Origin: an uncultured Dictyoglomota bacterium
Lineage (GTDB): Bacteria; Dictyoglomota; Dictyoglomia; Dictyoglomales; Dictyoglomaceae
Length of the DNA stretch: 50,417 bases
Assembly (NCBI GenBank): GCA_964654465.1
Contig: CAZZIO010000072.1
Location: forward strand, 1 to 50,417
Direction: 5' to 3'
Shown here: positions 26,217 to 38,510 of the stretch, piece by piece
Layout: every line of letters starts with the position of its first letter
Numbering within the stretch: the first letter of the stretch is position 1
Position numbers and translations under genes: made by a program
Notes under the pieces: model-generated
Databases searched by the model: none
Seen by the model: only the letters and a program-made list of their open reading frames with translations
Told to the model about the DNA's origin: nothing

Positions 26217-26257
26217 AAGAGGGGATAGGGATAATTTTTTAATCCTTATCCCCTCTT
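26217..26257. terminator. Bidirectional terminator at the convergence of the + and - gene blocks
   Basis: AAGAGGGGATAGGGAT...ATCCTTATCCCCTCTT. Confidence 0.8.
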
Positions 26258-27998
26258 ATCCTTTTAGTTTCTCTTTTTTAATTCTTTTTTGTTCATACAT
26301 GATTTCATCGGCTTTTTGAAGAAGATCTTCTAAAGAAACAGGATTCTTAGGATCATAGGTCACAATTCCTATACTTATAGATATCTTATAGGGTCTATCT
26401 TGCTTGCTATTGAATTCTTCTATCTTTTCTAAAAGCCTTTTAAGGACTATTTCTTTATGATTTTCTTCCCCTATAATACCCATAATTACAAATTCATCTC
26501 CACCAAACCTTGCTATAAGGTCGTTCTGTCTAAGGGTTTCTCTCAAAATATTAGCTAAATCAATAAGGGCTTGATCTCCCACCTGATGTCCATATTTATC
26601 ATTTATTTCTTTCATGTGATCAAGATCAATAAACATAACAATTATCTTTTTATTTAATCTATTAGCTATAGAGAAGGTATGCTCTGCCAGAGTCATAAAT
26701 CCACGCCGGTTGTAAAGGCCCGTTAGAGCATCGGTTATAGAGAGTAACTTTAATTCTTCTTCTAACTTCTTCCTATAAGTTATATCAAGAATTGATAGGA
26801 GTATTGATTTTTTACCTTTATAAAGAACATTAACCATAGAGATCTCTAAATATGCTATTTCGTTATTTATTTTTCTTATTCTAATTTCATCTATTATATA
26901 TTCAAAAGTATTTTCTAATATCTGATTATACCTTTCCAAAAATCTATTTTTGTCCTCTTCATAAACATATTTTGTAAAATCATTTAGAGTTTCAAGTCTT
27001 GGTGGATAACCAAGGATCTCAACAAACCTTGAATTAGTGTATATGAATTTATTATCTTGTAATAAAGAAACACCAGTAAGAGACTGTTCTGCTAAAACTC
27101 TATACCTGGCCTCAGATTCCCTTAACGCTTCTAATAGCTCAATATTCTCAAAGATTATGGCAGCTTGCATAGTAAGTGTTTCTAAATTGAGAATATCATC
27201 CTGTTTAAAAGAATTCCTTTCAAGAGACTCTAAAACTAATATGCCTAATACCTTCTCTTTACCTAATATAGGAACAGCTAAGACAGAATTTGATACTGGA
27301 TTAACACATTTTATATCTGTTTCCCCAGTATAAGGTATATAAATAGTTCTCCTTTCACTAAGAACTTTTTTTAAAATACAAGAAGGGCTTTCTAAGTCTT
27401 TTGAATAATCTAATACACTTTTTGTAGATCTTTTCAGAAGAAAATTACCATCTTTTATCAAAAAAAGATAAACAAAGGGAGCATTACTTATTTTTATAGC
27501 TCCTTCAAAAAGTTTATCAAATAATTCTTCCCTATCTAAGGTAAAAATAGATTTTTGAATATCATTTAAAACCTTTAAACTTCTTATTTGCTTTTTATAA
27601 TTTTCTTCCCTTTTTACCCTATCTGTTACGTCTTCAATTATCGCTATTATGCCTTTTTCTACATTTCCCTCTAAAAGAGGAAACATCTGTACAGTTTGTT
27701 GCATATATTTATATTCTTCATCCTTTATTTCAATAGGTATAAGGTATTTATGAAATCTTTGAGAAAGAATAACTGAACTTCCTTGCAATACCTGCTGAAA
27801 ATAATTTTCAAATCTTTTAATCTGGGGAACTACCTCAAAAATATTTTGTCCAATGATATTTTCTTTTTTTATTCCTGTATTTACTTCAAGCCACTTATTC
27901 CAAAATATAACTTTAAAATTGGTATCTGTAATGAAGATACCCCATATACTGTATTCTTCAAGCCATGTAATGAGACTACTAAGAAAAAGTTCATTCAT
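26256..27998 (-). CDS. Diguanylate cyclase, PAS-GAF-PAS-GGDEF
   Basis: TDALTGLYNRR, FIDLD, INDKYGHQVGD, RQND I-site, ARFGGDEF; no TM segment seen. Confidence 0.93.
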   Translation of the reverse strand: MNELFLSSLITWLEEYSIWGIFITDTNFKVIFWNKWLEVNTGIKKENIIGQNIFEVVPQIKRFENYFQQVLQGSSVILSQRFHKYLIPIEIKDEEYKYMQQTVQMFPLLEGNVEKGIIAIIEDVTDRVKREENYKKQIRSLKVLNDIQKSIFTLDREELFDKLFEGAIKISNAPFVYLFLIKDGNFLLKRSTKSVLDYSKDLESPSCILKKVLSERRTIYIPYTGETDIKCVNPVSNSVLAVPILGKEKVLGILVLESLERNSFKQDDILNLETLTMQAAIIFENIELLEALRESEARYRVLAEQSLTGVSLLQDNKFIYTNSRFVEILGYPPRLETLNDFTKYVYEEDKNRFLERYNQILENTFEYIIDEIRIRKINNEIAYLEISMVNVLYKGKKSILLSILDITYRKKLEEELKLLSITDALTGLYNRRGFMTLAEHTFSIANRLNKKIIVMFIDLDHMKEINDKYGHQVGDQALIDLANILRETLRQNDLIARFGGDEFVIMGIIGEENHKEIVLKRLLEKIEEFNSKQDRPYKISISIGIVTYDPKNPVSLEDLLQKADEIMYEQKRIKKEKLKG

Positions 27999-28000
27999 AT

Positions 28001-28603
28001 TTATCCAATCTTTTCAAGGCTTTCCAAAAGTCTTTCTAAGGAAGAGACTCCCAAGATTATTACCAAATATCCCTTTATACTACTATCTCTCACCTTAAAC
28101 TGAGTTATAGCTATTAAGGCATATTTTAACTCCTCTTGAGATATTACAAGAGTGTCAAGCATCACATTGAGAGCTTCTAGATGGATTTTAGGAACAGAAA
28201 AGGTAATATGAAGCTGCAATAAGTTTCCAAACATTCCAAGACATGCATTAAGTAGAATATTTCCTATCTCCATTAATACTTCTTTTAAAGATGGGGTCAA
28301 ATAATCAACTTCCAAATCTTCTCCAGATAATAGGTTTGTAAGTTTTACAGCACCCTGATAGTCTAGAAGAAGAAGTGCATCTCCTGCTACAGGTCCTGAG
28401 AATATCTGGTGTACTGTAGTCACATCGCCATTAATCTCTTTCATGAGCCTACCCTGCAATTCACCAATAGGAACTATATCTACCTTAGGTGGTTCCAATA
28501 AAACTCTGTCTCCTGTAATCTCTGATAAAGAGGCTGCAGCTCTTGAGAAAGCAATATTAATAAGCTCGGAAAGAGCATCTTTTTGATTCTCATTTAAGAT
28601 CAT
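28001..28603 (-). CDS. cheC: CheC-family phosphatase
   Basis: DALSELINIA and LMEIGNI (two ExxN motifs), FSVP. Confidence 0.85.
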   Translation of the reverse strand: MILNENQKDALSELINIAFSRAAASLSEITGDRVLLEPPKVDIVPIGELQGRLMKEINGDVTTVHQIFSGPVAGDALLLLDYQGAVKLTNLLSGEDLEVDYLTPSLKEVLMEIGNILLNACLGMFGNLLQLHITFSVPKIHLEALNVMLDTLVISQEELKYALIAITQFKVRDSSIKGYLVIILGVSSLERLLESLEKIG

Positions 28604-28606
28604 ATC

Positions 28607-28963
28607 TTATCCTCCCGAAATTTTCTTAAGAATGTTTAAAACCTCTTCCTCAACAACTGGCTTATTTAAAAAAGCAGTAGCCCCTTTTTGCGTGGCAAGC
28701 TCTTTCGTTTGTCTTTGTATATCAGCTGAAACTATTATAACCTTCGCAGAGTTATCTATTTCCTTAATTTTTTCAAGAACCTCAAGCCCATTTAATCCCT
28801 CCATAGTAAGATCCAAAAATACCACATCAGGCTTCTCAAGATAAAATTTTTCCAACCCCTCTATACCACTTCCTGCCTCAATTATTTCATGATTTTCCTT
28901 TTCTAATACTCTTTTCAAAATCCTTCTTGCAAGACTTGAATCATCAATAAGAAGAATTTTCAT
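28607..28963 (-). CDS. cheY: Single-domain response regulator (CheY-like)
   Basis: ILLIDDS, FLDLTM, SAD, KP; start adjusted to MKILL. Confidence 0.88.
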   Translation of the reverse strand: MKILLIDDSSLARRILKRVLEKENHEIIEAGSGIEGLEKFYLEKPDVVFLDLTMEGLNGLEVLEKIKEIDNSAKVIIVSADIQRQTKELATQKGATAFLNKPVVEEEVLNILKKISGG

Positions 28964-30032
28964 TATTGCTTCCCCCCATAACAAAATTTATTATCTCTTC
29001 CGCCATATTATAAAGAGGAATACTTTTATCACTTAATCCTCTCTCTTCGACAGCTCTTGGCATGCCGTAAATTATACATGTTTCCTCAGATTCGGTAAAT
29101 ACAATTCCCCCTTTTGATTTTATTACTTCTACCCCTAAGAGTCCATCATTTCCCATCCCTGTCATTATAATACCAAGAGTTCTACTACCAAATATTTCTC
29201 CTGCAGATTTAAACAAAACATCTGCTGAAGGTCTATGAAGAGTATCTAAAGGTTTTAAATCCAGTCTCACCAAAACCTTATCATCCATTTTTTCAAAGAA
29301 CATATGTTTGCCTGCAGGTGCAATATACACCTTTCCTCCCTGTAAGATATCACCATCTTCCGCTTCTTTGACCTCTAATTCAGATATTTCATTTAATTTT
29401 TCTGCAAAAATTTCTGTATATCCTATTGGCATATGAATAACAATAGCTATTGGAACTGGAAAATCCCTTGGAAATTTTGGTATTAAATACCTCAAAGCCT
29501 GTGGGCCTCCAGTAGAGATTCCAATAACCACAACATCTACTCTGGTCTTTTTAATTTCTTTTTTAATCTCTAATTTAGGTGTGGGTAAGCTTATAACTTT
29601 TTTGACTTTTTTAAGAGATATCATACTTGCGTTTTTTACTTTTTCTATAAGCTCATTGGATATCTCATAGATCTTTTCAGAGGCTAATGCAGTAGGTTTC
29701 TGTATAATATCTACTGCACCTAAATTAAGAGCCTCAATAGCTAAATCTCCTGTCTCACTCGCTATACTTACTATTACAACAGGAAGAGGCCTTCTTTTCA
29801 TTTGTTCCTTTAAAAAGCCAATACCATCAAGTCTCGGCATAATAAGGTCCAAGGTTACTACATCAGGTTTTAATTCTTCCACCTTTTCAAGAGCTTCTTC
29901 TCCATCTCGTGCAGTCCCTACTACCTCAATAAAAGGACTTTTAGAGAGAATATTAGTTAATACTTTTCTTACAAAAGCAGAATCATCTACAACCAGTACT
30001 CGGATTATTCTATCTGGATTATTTTTTGACAT
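28944..30032 (-). CDS. cheB: Chemotaxis methylesterase (REC-CheB)
   Basis: VLVVDDS, TLD..MP; GISTGGP, IHMP, RPSADVLF, TGMGNDG; start MSKNN after GGAGGTG. Confidence 0.95.
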   Translation of the reverse strand: MSKNNPDRIIRVLVVDDSAFVRKVLTNILSKSPFIEVVGTARDGEEALEKVEELKPDVVTLDLIMPRLDGIGFLKEQMKRRPLPVVIVSIASETGDLAIEALNLGAVDIIQKPTALASEKIYEISNELIEKVKNASMISLKKVKKVISLPTPKLEIKKEIKKTRVDVVVIGISTGGPQALRYLIPKFPRDFPVPIAIVIHMPIGYTEIFAEKLNEISELEVKEAEDGDILQGGKVYIAPAGKHMFFEKMDDKVLVRLDLKPLDTLHRPSADVLFKSAGEIFGSRTLGIIMTGMGNDGLLGVEVIKSKGGIVFTESEETCIIYGMPRAVEERGLSDKSIPLYNMAEEIINFVMGGSNNENSSY

Positions 30033-30855
30033 ATACAAAAGCACCTCCAATAATTTGTAAATCAAAGGAATGGGAAAATCTAAGTAAGGACTCTGATAAT
30101 CCAATAAAGAGATAACCAGGATTTTCCATATTCTCTTCAAATATCCTTATAACTTTCTGTATTATGTCATCAGAAAAATATATAAAAACATTTTTACAAA
30201 AAATAATCTTTGACTTCGATAAATCCACTATCTCTTGCTTACTTACCAAATTTGCTTTTTTCCATATAACCTTTTTATGTATATCTGGTATTATTTTATA
30301 CCCATTTTCTACTTTTATAAAATATTTATCAATTAAATCATTTGGAAAATTTCTAAAAGACCTTTCTTTATAAATTCCTTTTTTAGCCTTTTCTAAAGCA
30401 GAATTACTTATATCGCTTGCAAATATTTCTATTCGCATCTTATCAAACCAACCCTTTTCATTTAAAACAATAGCTATAGACAACGGTTCCTCTCCTGTAG
30501 CACATGCACTACTCCATATCTTTACATATCTTTCCCCTTTTTCATAAAGATCAGGAATAATATGTTCAGATAAAACTTTTAAATGTTCATATTCTCTGAA
30601 GAAATAGGTCTCTTGCACAGAAAGAGCATCAGCTATTTTATCCCATTCCTCTTTTCCCTCAGGGTCATATTTTAAGAAATAGTAATAATCAACAAAGTTA
30701 GTAAAATTCCTTTCTAAAGCAAGGGGAGTAAGTTTATCTGCTAAAATATCTTTCTTCGAATCATCGTAATATATTCCAATTTTATCTTTGATTAAATCTC
30801 TGAGAAGAGAAAAAGAATTTCCAGGAAAATCTAAAGTCTCTTGATAGAAAATCAT
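30019..30855 (-). CDS. cheR: Chemotaxis methyltransferase
   Basis: ETYFFRE, IWSSACATGEEP, ASDIS, IFCKNVFIYF, G.SESL. Confidence 0.95.
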   Translation of the reverse strand: MIFYQETLDFPGNSFSLLRDLIKDKIGIYYDDSKKDILADKLTPLALERNFTNFVDYYYFLKYDPEGKEEWDKIADALSVQETYFFREYEHLKVLSEHIIPDLYEKGERYVKIWSSACATGEEPLSIAIVLNEKGWFDKMRIEIFASDISNSALEKAKKGIYKERSFRNFPNDLIDKYFIKVENGYKIIPDIHKKVIWKKANLVSKQEIVDLSKSKIIFCKNVFIYFSDDIIQKVIRIFEENMENPGYLFIGLSESLLRFSHSFDLQIIGGAFVYVKK

Positions 30856-33566
30856 ATTTCCCTACCTTCTAATATATTTTTTACAATTTGTATAATTTCA
30901 GAATCCTTCTCTTCTAACAAGAAGTCCTTAAGGATTTTATATTCTTCTATTGAACCCAAATTGTGTAAAGAAAATATAGCTTGAATTTTTACATCCCTAT
31001 CATCGTCTTTTAAAAATTGAGCAATATATTTTGTAACCCCTTTCCTTTTTCTCTCTAAAGCAAGAATCAAAGCTTTCTTTTCTATTTTTGTTATATTGTT
31101 ACATGCTTTCAATAAATTTGGGATTTCTTCTAAAGGTATTTGAGAAAGAGTATCAATAGCCATATCTCGCTTATCAGCATATAAACTGAGAGACAATATA
31201 GCCCTATAACTTTCTAAGATACCCATTTGTAAAAAGGCCAAAAGAGCTTCTTTTATTATATCCTTATCATTTTCTGTTATAGTGCACCAAAGTATATTTT
31301 GTATCACTATAGGATTTTTCTTATTTTTTAACGCTCTTATTGCTTCTTTTTTTAAATCTTTATCTCTGGAGTTAAGAAATTGCAAAAGCAAAGGTATGGT
31401 CTCAGGATGATCTATGTTACCAAGAGCAGATATGGAATTTAATATTAAGTCTTTGTTATCAGAGTCTAAAAATTTTTGGATTAAAGGTATAGCTCTTTTA
31501 TTTCCTATCTTTCCTAAGGATTCAATAATAATAGCCTTTACTAACTCTGACTCCTCTCTGTGTAATAAATCTTCAAGCAAATCAATAATATAGGGAGGAT
31601 TATGGAAAACTAAGGATTTTACTGCATAATACCTTACCCAAGGAGAGGAATCTTTTAATGCTATCTCTATTAATGGTAATGCTTTTTCTTTTTCTATATA
31701 TATTAAAGCTCTTGCTATCACTTCCCTTATTTTTCTTTTCTCTTTTTCTAAACCACTTTTAAGAATCTCAAAAATTCTTTCATCATCAAAAAATACTATA
31801 TTCTCATATACTGCTTTCCTTATTTCTTCATTATCCTCTTCCAAAAGTTTTATTAAGTCGTCTTTATACTCTTCATATCCAAAATATCCTATTATCTTTA
31901 TAGCAGATTCCTTTTCATAACAATTATTACTTACTAAGAGTTCTTTTACCCTTTCTCTCATTTCAGGATGCCCCAAAGAATTCAAGGCAGATATTATTGA
32001 CTGTCTTATATAGGGATTAGGATGTCCTAATTTCTTAATTAATGGATCAAAAGCCCTTCTATCTCCTATTTTGGCCAACGCTCCTGCACAAACAATTGTA
32101 AGATTTTCGTCTTCTAATTGTTCTAATATGTAAGGTACTGCCTTTTTACTTCCTATTCTTCCTAAGGCCATAATAGCTAAGGTTTTTATCTCTATATCTT
32201 CATCCCTTAAGCTTTCTATAAGCAAATCCTCTATTTCTTTTCCATATTTAATAAGCACCTCAATAATTTCATTTCTCACGTTTGGATTTCCAATAAACTT
32301 TATTAAATATCTTTCCACAGTAGGATCCTTAAGGTAGGCAAGAATAGGTATGATGTTTTTTAGAGTTTCCTCTCTAAGTTTAAAAATAAAATCTAAAACA
32401 TTTTTTAACCCTTGGGGTGTTAAATTGTCCTTTATCTCTTTAGCAATATATTCACCCTCTTCGTATATGTTCTCATATCTTCTATATATTTTTCCTAAGG
32501 CCTCTAAAATATCTTCTATATATTCAGGCGATTGATTTAAATGATTTACAAGTATTTTTACTGAATTTTTATCTCCCAATTCTCCTAAAATCTCTATTAC
32601 GTGAGGTTTAAAGAGTTCATCTTCAAAATAAGGATAGATTTTCTCAATAATAGTTGGATCATTTATTTCTTTTAAGGCATTTAAAATCGCTACTCCTAAA
32701 TAATAGTCTTTACTTTCAAGAAATTTCAAAAGATAAGGTACTGCTTTTTGAGATTTTTTATTCCCCAATCCTTCTATAGCTGAAAACACCACATTAGGAT
32801 TACTATCTGAAAGGGCAGATATTAAAAGATCCTCTGCTTCTTCAAAATTAATATTTGAAAGTATCTGAACTGTATAGAGTCTTAAATCTGGATCTTTATC
32901 CTTCAACATTTGAGAAAGGGCATATAAAATATCTAAATCAGTAGTGGAGGATAGAATTTGAATCACACTATTCAATACACTCAAATTTCGGTATTCTTCT
33001 TTCATTCTCTTTAAAAGTTCATAAGCAAATTTTCCACTTTTTTTCTTTATCTCTTCCACCGCAATCTTTCTTACTTTCCAACTTTCATCATTAATAGCTT
33101 CTACTATTCCTTCATCTTCCCTTTGACTTAACTTCTTTAAAGCCAAAATTCTCTCCTTTTCATCAGGGCTTTTCAGTTTCTCTTTTAACTCCATTTCTTC
33201 TTCTAAAATCTGAGTAACATCCTCAATAGTTATTATCAAACCTACAACCTCTTTCTCTGTCTTTAGCGGGGCAATAGTAACTCTCTGTCTCATTTTATCA
33301 AAATACTTGGAAGGATAGGATAGTTCAATAGGTATAAGATACTTGTGAAATCTTGTAGATAGAATTCTTACCACACCATTTTGAAGTACTTCTTCAAAGA
33401 TTTTAGTGATACCTCTATCTATCAAATCAGGATATATCTCAGTGATTAATTTTCCAACTATATCCTCTCTTGGAATTTTTGTTTTTTCTTCTAACCAACT
33501 ATTCCAGTAAGTAATTATAAGATTTCTATCAGTAGTAAGAATACCATAATTTTCTTTATCCTCCAT
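30852..33566 (-). CDS. PAS domain plus long HEAT-repeat protein
   Basis: N-terminal PAS (GILTTD...YWN...IEDVT); many LxDxxxxVRxxAxxALG-type repeats. Confidence 0.85.
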
Positions 33567-35415
33567 TTTCTCTTTCCTCCATTTTATCCATACCTTCTTG
33601 TATCTTAGAAATACTCTTTGATAGAGCCTCTAAATTACTAATATTTCTCTTATTAGCTTCTGCTATTTCTTTTATCTGTTTTGCTATTTTGGTTATATTT
33701 TCAAACACATTTTTATTGGCAATAACTTGTTCATCCATTCCTTTCTTTATACTATTAAGTTGTTTCCTTATCATCTCTATAGCCTTCACAATTTGAGATG
33801 ATGCAATAGCTTGCTCAGATATTGCCTTACTTATACTATTAATTAATTTACCTAATCTTTCAGTTTCTTTCGCAATTTGATCACTGGCAATAGACTGTTC
33901 TTGCATAGCTTTTGCAGTGTTTAATGAAATTTTTCTCATTGAATCCACTGCTTGTACAATCTGGTTAGCTCCTTTTGCTTGCTCCTCTGTAGCCTTTTGT
34001 ACTAAGCTTGCAAGTCTCGAGGTTGCTTGCCCTGATCTTAATATTTCCCTGGCAGCTTTTGATTGTTCCTGCATAGCTTCAGTTATTTGTTTTGTTATTC
34101 TCCTAATATTGTTTACATTTTGTACTATAGAATGGGCTGTTTTATTTTGCTCTGAGGTTGCCTTTGCAATCTCTTCTGATTGTTTAGAGGTAATATTTAC
34201 GGTATTAACCATATTTTGACCTGCCACCAACTCTTCCTCACTGGCTCTTGCTATTTGAGAAATCATAAGAGTTGTCTCCTCTATTCCAGAAAGAATTCTC
34301 TTTAAAGCATTAGCTCCTTCTTCTGAAAGATTTGTGCTTTCCTCTACTACTCTTAGTCCCTCCTTAGAAGCTGACACAGCTTCTTGGGCCACTTCTTGCA
34401 AATTTCTTATAATCTTTCCAATATCAGAAGTAGCCTTTGTAGCTCTTTCTGCCAAATTTCTTATCTCCTCTGCAACCACAGCAAAACCTCTGCCTGCTTC
34501 TCCAGCTCTTGCTGCCTCTATGGAAGCATTTAAGGAAAGAAGATTAGTTCTTTCAGCTATAAGGTCTATAGTATCCACTATTTCATTAATTTCTCCTGCC
34601 CTTTTTCCCATTTCTTTAATTACCGATGATATTTGTTCCATCACATTTCTTATCTTATTGATACCTTGAATAGCTTTTTCAATTGTAATTCCCCCTTCTT
34701 TTGCCTCTCTCTCAAGTCTCTTTGAGGTTTCATCAGCTCTTTTTGTAATATCCACTACCGATCTTATAGACTTATCAAGCTGTATAGCACTTGTGGCACT
34801 ATTTTGTACCGCTGAAGTTATATCTTCAGCTCTCTTTGCCACATTCTCTATAGATCTTGCCATCTCTTCTATAGCAGTTGCTATTTGTTCCACTGATGAA
34901 GATAAATTTTCAACTGAAGCTGTTACCTCTTCAATAGAGGAGGCCATCTCATTTATAGAAGAAGTTGTTATTTCTGCAGACTGCGAAAGTTCTTTTGCAT
35001 TATCTGCTACTTGCTGAATTGAACGAGATATTTCCTCTATAGAGGATGCCGTCTGTGTTACTGCAGAGGCAAGAGAATCAACATCAGCCGTAACCCCTTT
35101 TATAGATTGGGACATTTCCGTGATACTTGCAGAAATCTCTTGAGATGATGTAGCCATCTCTTGGGACATCTGATTTACACTCTGGATCGAATTAGACAAT
35201 TCCTCTATACTTGCTGAAATTTCCTCTACTGCAGAAGAAAAACTTTCAAGGTTTTCTTTGAGTTCCTCTATAGAAGTAGAAAGTTCATTAGTAGAAGATA
35301 TGATATTTTCTGTTGAAGAAGTTATATTTTCTGATTCAATTGTTATTATCTTCAAATCTTCAGTCAATTTTTCTAATTTATCCAAATCTAACTCCTCACT
35401 TTTTCTCCTTTTCAT
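33556..35415 (-). CDS. Soluble methyl-accepting chemotaxis protein with no TM or sensor domain
   Basis: [37 protein letters not shown] at the protein midpoint. Confidence 0.93.
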
Positions 35416-35872
35416 CTTCTAAGCCTCCTTCTTTTAGAATCTCTTTAGGATTTAATATCAAAATTAATCTATCTCCAAGATTAGCAATTCCCTCCAAAAA
35501 TTTTTCCGATATACCAAAAATATTTTCAAAAGATTCTTGAATCTTATCTGGTGGTATAGAGATATATTCACGAGCAGAATCTACAATAAGCCCTACCTCT
35601 TTATCTTCTATTTTAATAACAATCATTCTTGTTTTTATATCATACGGAATTCTCTCTAATCCCATTCTTGCCCTTAAATTAATTACTGGTATTACTTTTC
35701 CCCGAGAAAGGGTAACACCATCAACATAAGGTGTTGCATTAGGCACAAGGGTAATATTCTCCACCATCTCTATCTGCTGAATATACTTACTTTTTATACC
35801 GTAAAAGGTTTCACCTATTTTAAAAACCACATAAGAATTTTCTTCATCAATGATGTAAAACACTTTTTTCAC
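35396..35872 (-). CDS. cheW: Chemotaxis coupling protein
   Basis: [29 protein letters not shown]. Confidence 0.93.
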
Positions 35873-37766
35873 TCCTTCCCTTTAGAAGTCCATCTATATT
35901 TAAAATCAGTACAACTTTTCCATCCCCAAAATCTGTTCCCCCCATAATGGCAGGATTTTTAAGTATAATAGGATCCGTAATAGGTCTTACTACTGCCTCT
36001 TTCACACTTATTACCTTATCAACTCCTATTCCAATATCTTGATTTTCCTTTGTTACAATAAGAAGATGATATTTCTCTTTCTTCTCTGTAGGAAGGTTAA
36101 AAATCTCAGAAATAAATAATACAGGAATACTTTTGGCTCTATAGGGAATCATTTTTATCCCTTTGAACCTTACAATATCCTCATTTTTTACCTCTATGAT
36201 CTCCTTTATATAGGATTGAGGAATAGCATATCTTTCTTTTCCTACCTCTACCAATACTGAATCCAAAATAGCAAGAGTTAAAGGAAGTTTCAAAATAAAT
36301 CTTGTGCCTTTATCTTTCTCACTACTCAAATAAAGATTACCACCCAATTCCTGGATGGTATTTTTCACTACAGACATACCTACTCCTCTTCCGCTTTCTC
36401 TATCTGCCGAATCTCGTGTGGAAAAATCTGGAGAACATATAATTTCTAACACCTTTTCATCCGAATTTAATTCATCTCTACCTCTTATCATTCCAAGCTC
36501 TAACGCCTTATCCGCTATTTTATCTCTATCTATTCCTTTACCGTCGTCTTCTACTTCAATAATCACATTATCTCCAGAAGTATAAGCTCTTAAATATATA
36601 TTCCCATAAGGATCTTTACCCTTTTCCAATCTATCTTTCTCTTCCTCAATTCCATGACTTACAGCATTCCTTACAAGATGTAAAAGAGGATCTATTAATC
36701 TTTCCACGATATACTTGTCAAGTTCCGTTTCTTTTCCCAATATATGTAGATTTATTTTTTTCTTGCTTTCTCTAATAAGATCTCTTATAACAAACTGCAT
36801 TCTTTCAAAAGCTTCTCCTATGGGTACTAATCTGACTTTCATAAGACTTTCTCTTAAATTTCTTAAATTCTTATCTAAAAGTCTTATGGTCTCAGAAAGT
36901 CTACTTTGCATTATTGGTGATACTACCGATTCTATTTCTTTAAAATCTTCTTGTAATCTTGACTTTGTAATTACCAATTCTCCCACAATCCTCATAAGTT
37001 CATCTAATTTGGAAAGATCCACTCTTATAAATGTGGTAGGAGAAAGGGTAGTTGGAACAGATTTTACTTTTTCCTCTAATCTTCCTTTTTCTTCTTCAGG
37101 ATAATATTGAATATTCAACTCTTTAAGAAATTCTAAATTTGATTCATCATCACAAGAGAACAAAAACTCAAAATATATCTTTTTATCCTTATCCACTTGT
37201 GGTATGGCTTTAAGTAATTTGGTCTTCTCTTGAAGATTTTTTCTTAAAAATTCTACATTTATACCTTTTTCAGATAGTTCTTGAGAAGGATAAAAAACAA
37301 TTTTATATACCCTTTCTTCTTTTTTCTTTTCTACCTCTTCCTTAAATTCCTTAGGAGTCTCATCATGAGTAGTGAGTACCTTTAACTTGGAAAGTGCCTC
37401 TTCTATATCAGGAATTTCTTTATTCTCCTTTTTGCACAAAATGACTTCTTCCAATAGCTTTACACCATCTCTAAGTAATAAAAGATCTTCTTCTTTAAAA
37501 CTCTTTTTTCCAGTCCTCAGCAATTTAAGATAACTTTCCAATTGATGTGATAATTTTTCAGCTTGCAATATACCTACCATGGCAGAAAGACCTTTTATGG
37601 TATGAAAACTTCTAAAAAGCTCATTTATTATCTCCTCATTAATTACTTCTTTGTCTAAATAATCTTCTAAAGCAATAAGATTTTTCTTTATTGATAATAG
37701 GTGTTCATCACATTCAGCAAAATAATCTTGCAATAAAGAATCTAAAAACTCCTTATCATCTTTCAT
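35847..37766 (-). CDS. cheA: Chemotaxis histidine kinase
   Basis: FRSFHTIKG (Hpt), IRVDLSKLDELM, HLVRNAVSHGIE, DDGKG, GRGVGM, LPLTLA, C-terminal CheW domain. Confidence 0.96.
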   Translation of the reverse strand: MKDDKEFLDSLLQDYFAECDEHLLSIKKNLIALEDYLDKEVINEEIINELFRSFHTIKGLSAMVGILQAEKLSHQLESYLKLLRTGKKSFKEEDLLLLRDGVKLLEEVILCKKENKEIPDIEEALSKLKVLTTHDETPKEFKEEVEKKKEERVYKIVFYPSQELSEKGINVEFLRKNLQEKTKLLKAIPQVDKDKKIYFEFLFSCDDESNLEFLKELNIQYYPEEEKGRLEEKVKSVPTTLSPTTFIRVDLSKLDELMRIVGELVITKSRLQEDFKEIESVVSPIMQSRLSETIRLLDKNLRNLRESLMKVRLVPIGEAFERMQFVIRDLIRESKKKINLHILGKETELDKYIVERLIDPLLHLVRNAVSHGIEEEKDRLEKGKDPYGNIYLRAYTSGDNVIIEVEDDGKGIDRDKIADKALELGMIRGRDELNSDEKVLEIICSPDFSTRDSADRESGRGVGMSVVKNTIQELGGNLYLSSEKDKGTRFILKLPLTLAILDSVLVEVGKERYAIPQSYIKEIIEVKNEDIVRFKGIKMIPYRAKSIPVLFISEIFNLPTEKKEKYHLLIVTKENQDIGIGVDKVISVKEAVVRPITDPIILKNPAIMGGTDFGDGKVVLILNIDGLLKGRSEKSVLHH

Positions 37767-37772
37767 CTAATT

Positions 37773-38510
37773 TCACTCCTTAAACAAAAACCTCTTAACA
37801 TTATCCAAAAGTTCCTGGGGATTAAAGGGTTTTACCACATACAAATTAGCTCCTTCTTTTATAGCTGTTTCCTTCATTTCTTCGTCTCCACGAGTAGTTA
37901 ATATAATTACAGGAATATCTTTATATAAATCATGCTTTCTCATGAATTTCAAAACCTCAATTCCATGCATATCTGGCATATTAAGATCAAGAATCACTAA
38001 ATCAATCTTTTTTAATGCAAGTTTTTCAAGAGCAAATAAACCACTTTCAGCTTCCTCAAACTGAACCTTGGGAATCTTTGATAATACAGTCATAAGCATT
38101 TTACGGATAGTCTTAGAATCATCCACTAATAATATTGTCTTCATATATTCTTTTCCCCCAATTTTTTCTATTATTTCGTCAATATGAGAAAACAGCTCTG
38201 ACTTTGAAATAAAGCCATCTGCTCCTACTTCATTACTTGCCTTTCTGTATTCCTCGTTATCATATAAAGTTAAAATAATTGTTTTAGGTGGATTCTCCAT
38301 TTTTTTTATTTCCTTTATAGTGGCAAAACCATCCATATCTGGCATAACTATATCCACAAAAACAAGATCAGGTTTTTTTTCTCTCACAATTCTTATTCCT
38401 TCTTGGCCTGAATTAGCAAAACCTACAACTTCAAAATTCTCTTCTTCCAAAATCTTTACTGCAGAATTTATAAAATCTTTACTATCATCAATAAGCACTA
38501 CTTTATACAT
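37773..38510 (-). CDS. Tandem receiver-domain protein (NarL-type REC fused to CheY-type REC)
   Basis: VLIDDS..FVDIVMP..ISK and ILLVDDS..ILDLNMP..KPF. Confidence 0.85.
   Translation of the reverse strand: MYKVVLIDDSKDFINSAVKILEEENFEVVGFANSGQEGIRIVREKKPDLVFVDIVMPDMDGFATIKEIKKMENPPKTIILTLYDNEEYRKASNEVGADGFISKSELFSHIDEIIEKIGGKEYMKTILLVDDSKTIRKMLMTVLSKIPKVQFEEAESGLFALEKLALKKIDLVILDLNMPDMHGIEVLKFMRKHDLYKDIPVIILTTRGDEEMKETAIKEGANLYVVKPFNPQELLDNVKRFLFKE

Follow-up and report, generated by a model that had tools for sequence, protein, structure and literature searches.

Many bacteria carry chemotaxis-like (Che) operons that do not steer flagella, and for most of these, especially those whose outputs have no receiver domain, we know of no established step that leads from phosphorylated CheY (CheY~P) to the output. 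We analyzed such an operon in a 50,417-nucleotide (nt) stretch of DNA from an uncultured Dictyoglomota bacterium of the Dictyoglomaceae (assembly GCA_964654465.1, contig CAZZIO010000072.1, positions 1 to 50,417), referred to below as the window. Its products include a CheC-type phosphatase, a HEAT-repeat protein, and a diguanylate cyclase (DGC). The last two begin with paralogous PAS domains that share an identical run of ten residues (the 10-mer) and that, as judged from their sequences, belong to one widespread PAS subfamily, for which no name exists so far and which we call PASx. Docking of the CheC protein on the PASx domain of the cyclase, the interaction that we propose, suggests how a non-motility Che-like pathway may reach a cyclase without a receiver.

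The operon and its paired PAS domains

The list of open reading frames (ORFs) and Pfam matches describe one tightly packed operon with all genes on the minus strand. It opens with a tandem receiver (REC-REC) protein (37773-38510) upstream of CheA (35847-37766), the sole CheA found in the genome, and continues with CheW (35396-35872) and a methyl-accepting chemotaxis protein (MCP) of 619 amino acids (aa; 33556-35415), which has MCPsignal as the sole Pfam domain found and is read as soluble. Next, in a Cpc7-like position between the MCP and CheR genes, lies the gene for a 904-aa PAS-HEAT protein (30852-33566; HEAT_2, 287.7 bits in 8 stretches, and PAS_9), followed by CheR (30019-30855), CheB with its REC and methylesterase domains (28944-30140), and a single-domain CheY (28607-28984; Response_reg, 89 bits). 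The gene for the 200-aa CheC-type phosphatase (28001-28603; Pfam CheC and CheX) stands between this CheY and the cyclase, directly upstream of the latter on the same strand (cyclase start at 27998) and separated from it by a 2-nt gap. The operon's last gene (26256-27998) encodes a 580-aa protein with the architecture PASx-GAF-PAS-GGDEF (GGDEF, 144.7 bits; GAF_2; PAS). With a GGDEF domain and a GG[DE]EF motif it is a predicted DGC; read from the sequence, its RFGGDEFV is intact and RQND, an I-site RxxD, lies five residues upstream. Pfam also confirmed that the cyclase has no receiver domain, as the first-pass annotation had stated.

In the 99.97%-complete genome, only one CheA and no FliG were found, so the operon is the only Che system of the organism and a flagellar switch cannot be its target. 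No match to CheD (PF03975), the partner typical of class I CheC, was found in this genome, and the CheD control genomes gave matches. The order CheA-CheW-MCP-HEAT protein-CheR-CheB, together with a single-domain CheY, makes the whole operon Che7-like by gene content, a layout that is widely conserved. Des7, which we take to be part of Myxococcus xanthus che7, has no counterpart in the window. The gene tables of PMC3945109 give the same order for M. xanthus Che7 as for the window (CheY-CheA-CheW-MCP-HEAT protein-CheR-CheB), and Mcp7 has no HAMP domain and no predicted transmembrane segments. Che7 is one of the non-motility ("alternative cellular function") Che pathways, and its HEAT protein Cpc7 is named as a partner of the single-domain CheY7 (Darnell 2014, cited in PMC11514114; the study is also cited in PMC9040617). 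Unlike the M. xanthus che7 order, the window operon continues with CheY-CheC-PASx-GGDEF, and its HEAT protein carries an N-terminal PASx domain; the comparison is one of gene order, not of Cpc7 sequence.

The PASx domain of the PAS-HEAT protein covers aa 1-125 (33192-33566, minus strand; PAS_9 over aa 7-119), and that of the DGC covers aa 1-140 (27579-27998, minus strand). The two N-termini are homologous, as the first-pass annotation had claimed: BLASTP aligned them with 52/133 identities (39%), 59% positives, and 5 gaps (E = 3e-27). Minus-strand translation likewise confirmed the identical 10-mer at aa 72-81 of the PAS-HEAT protein (33324-33353) and aa 81-90 of the DGC (27729-27758), where the plus strand encodes unrelated peptides. 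The DGC N-terminus matches Pfam PAS with 51.9 bits (cut-off 22.6) and PAS_9 with 45.6 bits (cut-off 27). The HEAT protein reaches 28.8 bits for PAS_9 (cut-off 27.0), with PAS_4 and PAS below their cut-offs, and for the NCBIfam model sensory_box (cut-off 22.9) the DGC and the HEAT protein score 45 and 22.8 bits, respectively. These are the only two PASx copies in the 1.91-Mb genome at E<=0.01. PASx is present in 5 of 10 family genomes (Dictyoglomaceae metagenome-assembled genomes [MAGs], the close named relatives), with a patchy operon distribution. The complete genomes G001 and G003 of the same genus gave zero PASx matches; thus, the operon is accessory within the genus.

To place these domains in a wider family, we searched a profile of ten Dictyoglomota domains against 1.84 billion representative proteins and recovered 10150 representatives at E<=1e-3, 1849 at E<=1e-10, and 44 at E<=1e-30; the family-level motif and architecture counts that follow refer to the best 150 of the 10150. 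PASx is nearly always N-terminal, almost every match among the 150 beginning by residue ~40, and the signature blocks WNxWLE, LSxxFHxYLIP, MQQ, and IEDVT are found at the N-terminus of both window proteins. Architectures, called by phmmer with the window's own domains as queries, comprise ~50 histidine kinase (HK) or HK-REC proteins, 15 HEAT, 13 GGDEF, and 2 HD-GYP proteins, and 53 unclassified ones (many of them short), so that PAS-HEAT is a recurrent architecture (15/150). The core pattern [FLIM]H.[YFH][LIVF][LIVF]P (FHxYLIP) occurs across many architectures in 96/150, whereas the exact 10-mer is found in 0/150, with 18/150 within three mismatches. NCBIfam assigns the domain to the generic "PAS S-box" and the ESM Atlas to generic PAS clusters, neither giving a named family.

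The shared 10-mer sits on this family's most conserved block, and its identity in the two proteins therefore reflects homology and purifying selection, not coincidence; a run of 10 identities anywhere in the domain has a probability of ~0.01 under a uniform 39%-identity model. Cyclase orthologues in the family keep RFHKY[LIF]IPI[EK], with one reading RLHKYLIPIK. The exact 10-mer is found in 2/5 Dictyoglomota HEAT orthologues (the window and a 92% relative), and the other three read KIHKYLIPIK, RIHHYFFSVK, and KIHRYLFSAK. The first-pass annotation had argued from the motif identity to a docking surface specific to this operon, a step that is not justified given a family-wide core and an exact 10-mer that sister lineages do not keep identical in the two proteins.

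The two window copies appear to represent two old subclasses. One, the HEAT-type, is carried by the Cpc7-like HEAT protein of Che7-like operons, and the other, the output-type, by the operon's last gene. In the alignments, the output-type has the consensus LSQRFHKYLLPMP and an N-terminal cap helix; the HEAT-type has the consensus LAPAFHHYLIPCP, and the cap helix is absent. The output-type domain sits on a GAF-PAS-GGDEF cyclase here and elsewhere on a histidine kinase, a hybrid kinase, or an HD-GYP protein. For a tree of the domain we excluded proteins of >1100 aa and hits of <60 bits or <100 profile positions, and dereplicated the rows at 80% identity (212 to 166). The HEAT label required 6 changes on the 166-row tree as compared to a shuffled mean of 21 (0/500 shuffles as low), and 2 changes once 41 unclassifiable rows shorter than 400 aa were left out. 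The window HEAT-PAS is nearest to foreign (non-Dictyoglomota) PAS-HEAT proteins, and the DGC-PAS is nearest to foreign output-type proteins. Since both copies cluster with foreign proteins that share their respective architectures, the paralogy is apparently ancient and not the product of a local duplication, and a recent Dictyoglomota-specific duplication is disfavored.

CheC and its place beside PASx

CheC proteins carry two copies of the active-site motif D/S-x3-E-x2-N-x22-P. Read from the sequence, the first site of the window CheC is D9-x3-E13-x2-N16-x22-P39 and the second is E108-x3-E112-x2-N115-x22-P138, in which glutamate replaces D/S at the first position. Among 27 CheC homologues, E13, N16, P39, and N115 are invariant, and D9, E112, and P138 are at least 90% conserved. 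A profile of these homologues matches the Thermotoga maritima CheC structures (1xkr_A, E = 2e-30; 2f9z_A, E = 2.6e-30). The window protein scores 33.6 bits with Pfam CheC (cut-off 22) and 33.7 bits with CheX (cut-off 27), and it is not the Thermotogales CheC equivalog (NCBIfam 76.8 versus a cut-off of 250).

We then looked at what lies next to PASx elsewhere. A scan of a genome collection yielded three loci outside or beyond named Dictyoglomota (a Nitrospira-labelled MAG, Aliarcobacter, and an uncultured bacterium); a CheC-like gene precedes the PASx gene in all three, with CheY as well in 2/3, and the outputs are GGDEF twice and a histidine kinase once. A metagenome scan with a narrower alignment (A4) gave 63 more loci, and all 70 loci (L012-L081) were annotated with local profiles. 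Adjacency was counted over 68 non-HEAT genes with PASx at >=60 bits, 64 of which had >=300 nt upstream and could be evaluated. A CheC-like gene lies directly upstream of the PASx-output gene in 58 of these 64, corresponding to 22 of 26 clusters at 70% identity; among the remaining six, two are the second genes of a PASx tandem and four have no CheC (L039, L045, L069, and L057). The gaps between the two genes are mostly -28 to +79 nt, often overlapping, with a few larger overlaps arising from over-long ORF calls, and the order CheY-CheC-PASx is found in 41 rows.

As an unbiased check, we searched 401 genomes with the profile (11 of the window family and 390 of other families). Sixteen non-family genomes had matches at E<=1e-12, in 19 loci. 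Ten of these loci score >=62 bits, and in the nine that could be evaluated a CheC or REC-CheC gene lies directly upstream in eight and is fused to PASx in one. This last case is a 758-aa protein (L111:442-2718, plus strand) that joins PASx, a weak GGDEF, EAL, and a C-terminal CheC/CheX domain, and it is a Rosetta-stone link between PASx, CheC, and the turnover of cyclic di-GMP (c-di-GMP). It is followed by a 207-aa CheC-like gene (L111:2715-3338; by local profile, not Pfam) and then by a PASx-PAS-GGDEF gene (L111:3335-4621). Because the adjacency persists while the outputs change, the invariant unit is CheC plus PASx, and the output domain and the remaining operon vary. The first-pass annotation had allowed that its motif might be a generic feature of the PAS subfamily in unrelated contexts; generic it is, at least in its core, but the contexts are not unrelated since CheC is common to them.

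Several loci depart from the standard layout. An intact CheC-PASx-GAF-GGDEF pair at L016:3468-5404 is preceded only by fragments of CheR (127 aa) and CheB (91 aa), with no CheY, and appears to be what survives of a decayed Che operon. At L020, where the cyclase is 89% identical to that of the window, no che genes are found in the 9 kb upstream, and the gene before CheC (L020:8944-9387) is chimeric, joining a HisKA_3 fragment to the C-terminal half of a receiver domain, which looks like a rearrangement breakpoint that separated the cassette from its operon. L039:4954-12801 is syntenic with L015:2654-12749 (upstream ORFs of 320/321, 167, 256, 563, and ~230 aa; REC-HD-GYP downstream), and the genes for PAS-HK, CheY, and CheC are absent before its PASx-GGDEF gene, making it a natural deletion variant. 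REC-CheC fusions of ~320-364 aa stand directly before PASx genes at L024:331-1293, L025:2197-3159, L073:8995-9957, L094:452-1459, and L101:356-1450, in the first three loci in addition to a stand-alone CheC. At L046:9353-12610 and L056:2478-4802 a single CheC gene is followed by tandem PASx-output genes; the L046 tandem consists of PASx-GGDEF and then PASx-HD-GYP, i.e., a synthesizing and a degrading enzyme that both carry a docking-type PAS.

To obtain a structural view of the output-type domain, we modeled aa 1-140 of the DGC with AlphaFold2 (predicted local distance difference test [pLDDT] 94, predicted template modeling [pTM] score 0.85). The model contains a cap helix (3-15), strands at 20-25 and 29-33, helices within 35-71, a short G strand (76-78), a turn (80-83), an irregular segment (84-100), strands at 101-110 and 113-123, and a C-terminal helix (125-139), and thus shows the five-stranded antiparallel sheet and helices of a PAS fold. 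The 10-mer (aa 81-90) forms a helical turn and irregular segment after the shortened G strand, which is atypical for PAS. Foldseek returned generic PAS, LOV, and heme-PAS domains only (probability 1.00, template modeling [TM] score 0.60-0.68, identity 11-22%), and a PDB profile search gave no closer solved structure, its match to 3mxq (E = 9e-6), a domain with ligand unknown, being weak.

We built a complex model of the window CheC (27-row alignment A5) with PASx of the cyclase (27-row alignment A6), using the cyclase PAS only and three controls. The interface score ipSAE (interaction prediction score from aligned errors) was 0.71/0.70/0.68 for the CheC-PASx pair and 0.00 for the best of the 3 controls; the first-pass annotation had named an AlphaFold-type model of this pair among its checks, and the prediction favors the pair (0.70 versus 0.00). 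Of the solved complexes, 116/157 attain the score mark, as do 2/215 of the mismatched pairs, counts that are only a rough calibration when user alignments are supplied. The model runs agree in >=94% of contacts, and the pLDDT of the partners is >=89. On the CheC side, the interface comprises residues 66, 70, 92-99, 103-115, 119, 123, and 132-138, which in the model is the second active site (E108/E112/N115/P138). On the PASx side, it comprises residues 69, 73-82 (GSSVILSQRF), 102/104/106-107/109, and 112/114 and one face of the C-terminal helix. Among the partners considered by the first-pass annotation, CheC thus gains support in the case of the cyclase PAS, with a near-obligate gene adjacency, a PAS...CheC fusion, and a complex model that passes its controls; of the motif, the predicted interface takes in R81 and F82 but not H83-E90.

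A docking reading and its alternatives

We propose, with a probability of roughly 0.6, that PASx forms a two-subclass family whose output-type members are docking domains for the CheC-type phosphatase encoded upstream, with the signal passing from CheA through CheY~P, CheC, and PASx to GGDEF. What is observed comprises homologous domains, a motif shared across the family, a conserved gene context, one fusion protein, and a genome in which neither FliG nor CheD was found; physical binding between CheC and PASx is predicted by the model, and the direction of signaling and a competition with CheY~P would follow from the mechanism as we picture it. CheA would phosphorylate CheY, and CheY~P would engage CheC. 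CheC, bound through its second site to PASx and the linker helix of the cyclase dimer, would then alter cyclase activity. PASx would dock over the second CheY~P site of CheC by means of its G-strand and turn (73-82), the outer face of its H strand, and the C-terminal linker helix. Because the modeled PASx covers the second CheY~P site, CheY~P and the cyclase PASx may either compete for that site or modulate one another at it. In its logic, such a mechanism would resemble the CheY~P-dependent binding of CheC to CheD in Bacillus.

A broader version of the proposal, to which we would give clearly less than even odds, makes PASx a dedicated CheC-docking domain in general. Beyond its phosphatase role, CheC would then be a CheY~P-sensitive adaptor that connects a whole class of non-motility chemosensory pathways to receiver-less outputs (cyclases, HD-GYP phosphodiesterases, and histidine kinases), PASx would stand in the place of the Bacillus CheD, and HEAT-type PASx would compete for or scaffold the same CheC, thereby coupling the two outputs of the operon.

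Several observations weigh against the docking reading. Binding comes from the structure model, and a model that passes its controls supports an interaction but does not show it. Within the 10-mer, only R81 and F82 belong to the confident interface and H83-E90 do not, and the family-invariant residues W33, W36, H83, Y85, M99, and Q101 all fall outside it. The position of these invariant residues and the alternation of the named H-strand residues indicate that they probably form a buried core or a ligand pocket, which would suit a sensor. The PAS construct ends in the linker helix that provides contacts, and in the full-length dimer this helix may be engaged elsewhere. HEAT-type domains differ at interface positions (P80/A81/R102/T104 versus Q80/R81/S102/R104 in the output-type), and the HEAT-type PASx gene is not adjacent to CheC, as the MCP gene lies upstream of it and CheC four genes downstream in the operon. 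The metagenome loci were ascertained by motif pattern and include near-duplicates, and the adjacency has exceptions in L039 (syntenic with L015 but without the HK-CheY-CheC trio), L045, and L069. The weaker matches of the unbiased sample (47-61 bits; 9 loci, 8 evaluable) have CheC in only 3 loci, although they are probably generic PAS domains. Finally, the resolution of the tree is limited, with 143 columns and 78/163 branches unresolved.

Known systems offer partial parallels to the docking reading. The Wsp system of Pseudomonas is a Che-like pathway with a c-di-GMP output, in which WspR (REC-GGDEF) is phosphorylated directly on its receiver. The window cyclase, unlike WspR, has no receiver and would need an adaptor, for which we propose CheC. 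In Shewanella oneidensis, CheY3 interacts with diguanylate cyclases according to PMC7666153, so that there, too, CheY~P controls c-di-GMP enzymes by protein contact and not by phosphotransfer; the genes do not form a conserved cassette, and the abstract mentions neither CheC nor a dedicated PAS docking domain. The CheC-CheD-CheY~P module of Bacillus subtilis and T. maritima (PDB 2F9Z) likewise has a two-site CheC with a second partner besides CheY~P, and in B. subtilis CheY~P strengthens CheC-CheD binding (PMC3513319). The window differs from this module in that its genome has no CheD and the partner, which is a proposed one, is a PAS domain. The predicted contact in the window involves the second active-site helix (103-115) and residues 132-138; D149 of B. 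subtilis CheC is cited at the CheD interface. In Halobacterium salinarum, a HEAT_PBS protein of the che region, OE2401F, is reported to interact with CheY, CheD, and CheC2 (PMC2666748). Like the window HEAT protein it is encoded among che genes, but this archaeal protein has a link to the archaellum switch and no domain besides its HEAT-like repeats.

A literature search found no description of a CheC-PAS pairing or of a PAS-HEAT protein in Che operons; its coverage did not extend to Darnell 2014 or the review by Muff & Ordal 2008, which could bear on the point. The pairing of PASx with CheC and its reading as a docking domain, also absent from NCBIfam and the Atlas, were not found elsewhere and would be new here. 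Since PASx accompanies a CheC-type phosphatase in different phyla and with different kinds of output, what started as the curiosity of one genome becomes a general proposal. If it is correct, CheC proteins gain a role as signaling adaptors outside motility, the outputs of Che7-like systems become predictable by a rule, and a defined protein pair, with named residues, links chemosensory input to c-di-GMP.

The best-surviving alternative, possible but clearly less probable than docking, is that PASx is mainly a sensor of a small molecule or cofactor. The HEAT protein and the cyclase would then read the same cue through paralogous pockets, and the adjacency to CheC would reflect a shared pathway without direct contact, although sensing is compatible with docking too. 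PAS domains are classic sensors, and the fold of the DGC copy resembles ligand-binding PAS, LOV, and heme domains (TM score 0.60-0.68). Moreover, the residues invariant in both subclasses (the W33 to Q101 set above) avoid the predicted interface, and L039 keeps PASx-GGDEF without an adjacent CheC. However, we identified no cofactor signature, and the nearest solved structures are at most 22% identical. If PASx were purely a sensor, one would expect it neither to follow one particular neighboring gene through changing outputs nor to be fused to CheC. The complex model also passes its controls.

Direct binding of CheY~P to PASx, with CheC serving only as the phosphatase that resets the signal, is an unlikely reading. 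It would account for the conserved order CheY-CheC-PASx in the 41 rows, and it has precedents in M. xanthus, where CheY7 binds Cpc7, a HEAT protein (Darnell 2014, cited in PMC11514114), and in the interactions of CheY3 with diguanylate cyclases reported for S. oneidensis (PMC7666153). Yet the gene that touches or overlaps the PASx gene is CheC, not CheY, the pair of CheC and PASx is kept in L016 and L020 where the CheY gene is absent or truncated, and it is the CheC-PAS model that passes its controls.

Slightly less probable still is the central idea of the first-pass annotation, in which the shared motif brings the two PAS domains, one from the HEAT protein and one from the cyclase, together as a heterodimer that recruits or inhibits the cyclase. 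PAS domains commonly dimerize. Of the 17 loci whose upstream sequence extends for >=7 kb, 10 have the full order CheA-CheW-MCP-PASx:HEAT-CheR-CheB-CheY-CheC-PASx:output, and PASx-HEAT and PASx-output also co-occur in the Dictyoglomota relatives G009, G010, and G004 (in the last on two separate contigs). But six of the 17 (L015, L018, L020, L037, L076, and L079) have CheY-CheC-PASx-output and no HEAT gene, and L026 has a HEAT protein without PAS; a PAS-PAS heterodimer is therefore not required. Nor is the exact motif co-conserved between both proteins in sister lineages. Concerted evolution of the two copies was rejected: whichever cyclase PAS it is compared with, that of its own operon among them, the identity of the window HEAT-PAS stays within 37-42%.

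That the 10-mer arose by recent gene conversion between the PAS segments, or by chance, is very improbable: its DNA is 27/30 identical, with 3 synonymous differences, and exceeds the domain-wide identity, but codon identity shows no sign of recent conversion, being at the level expected from operon codon usage both within the motif (7/10 versus 5.5; P = 0.26) and at the identical residues outside it (17/38 versus 18.0, with synonymous sites saturated), while the block itself is the family's most conserved. The codon test thus rejects recent gene conversion as the source.

Further features of the operon genes

The CheB ORF is listed with a TTG start (398 aa) and overlaps CheR by ~120 nt. A 92%-related locus gives a CheB of 368 aa, so the TTG start is probably too far upstream and the true start an internal ATG. 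Genes for REC proteins of 211-245 aa precede CheA in L014, L070, and L071, resembling the REC-REC gene of the window. In two metagenome contigs (L070:6186-8890 and L071:10001-12720), 3-4 consecutive ORFs take the place of one intact PAS-HEAT gene; these may be either sequencing frameshifts or pseudogenes.

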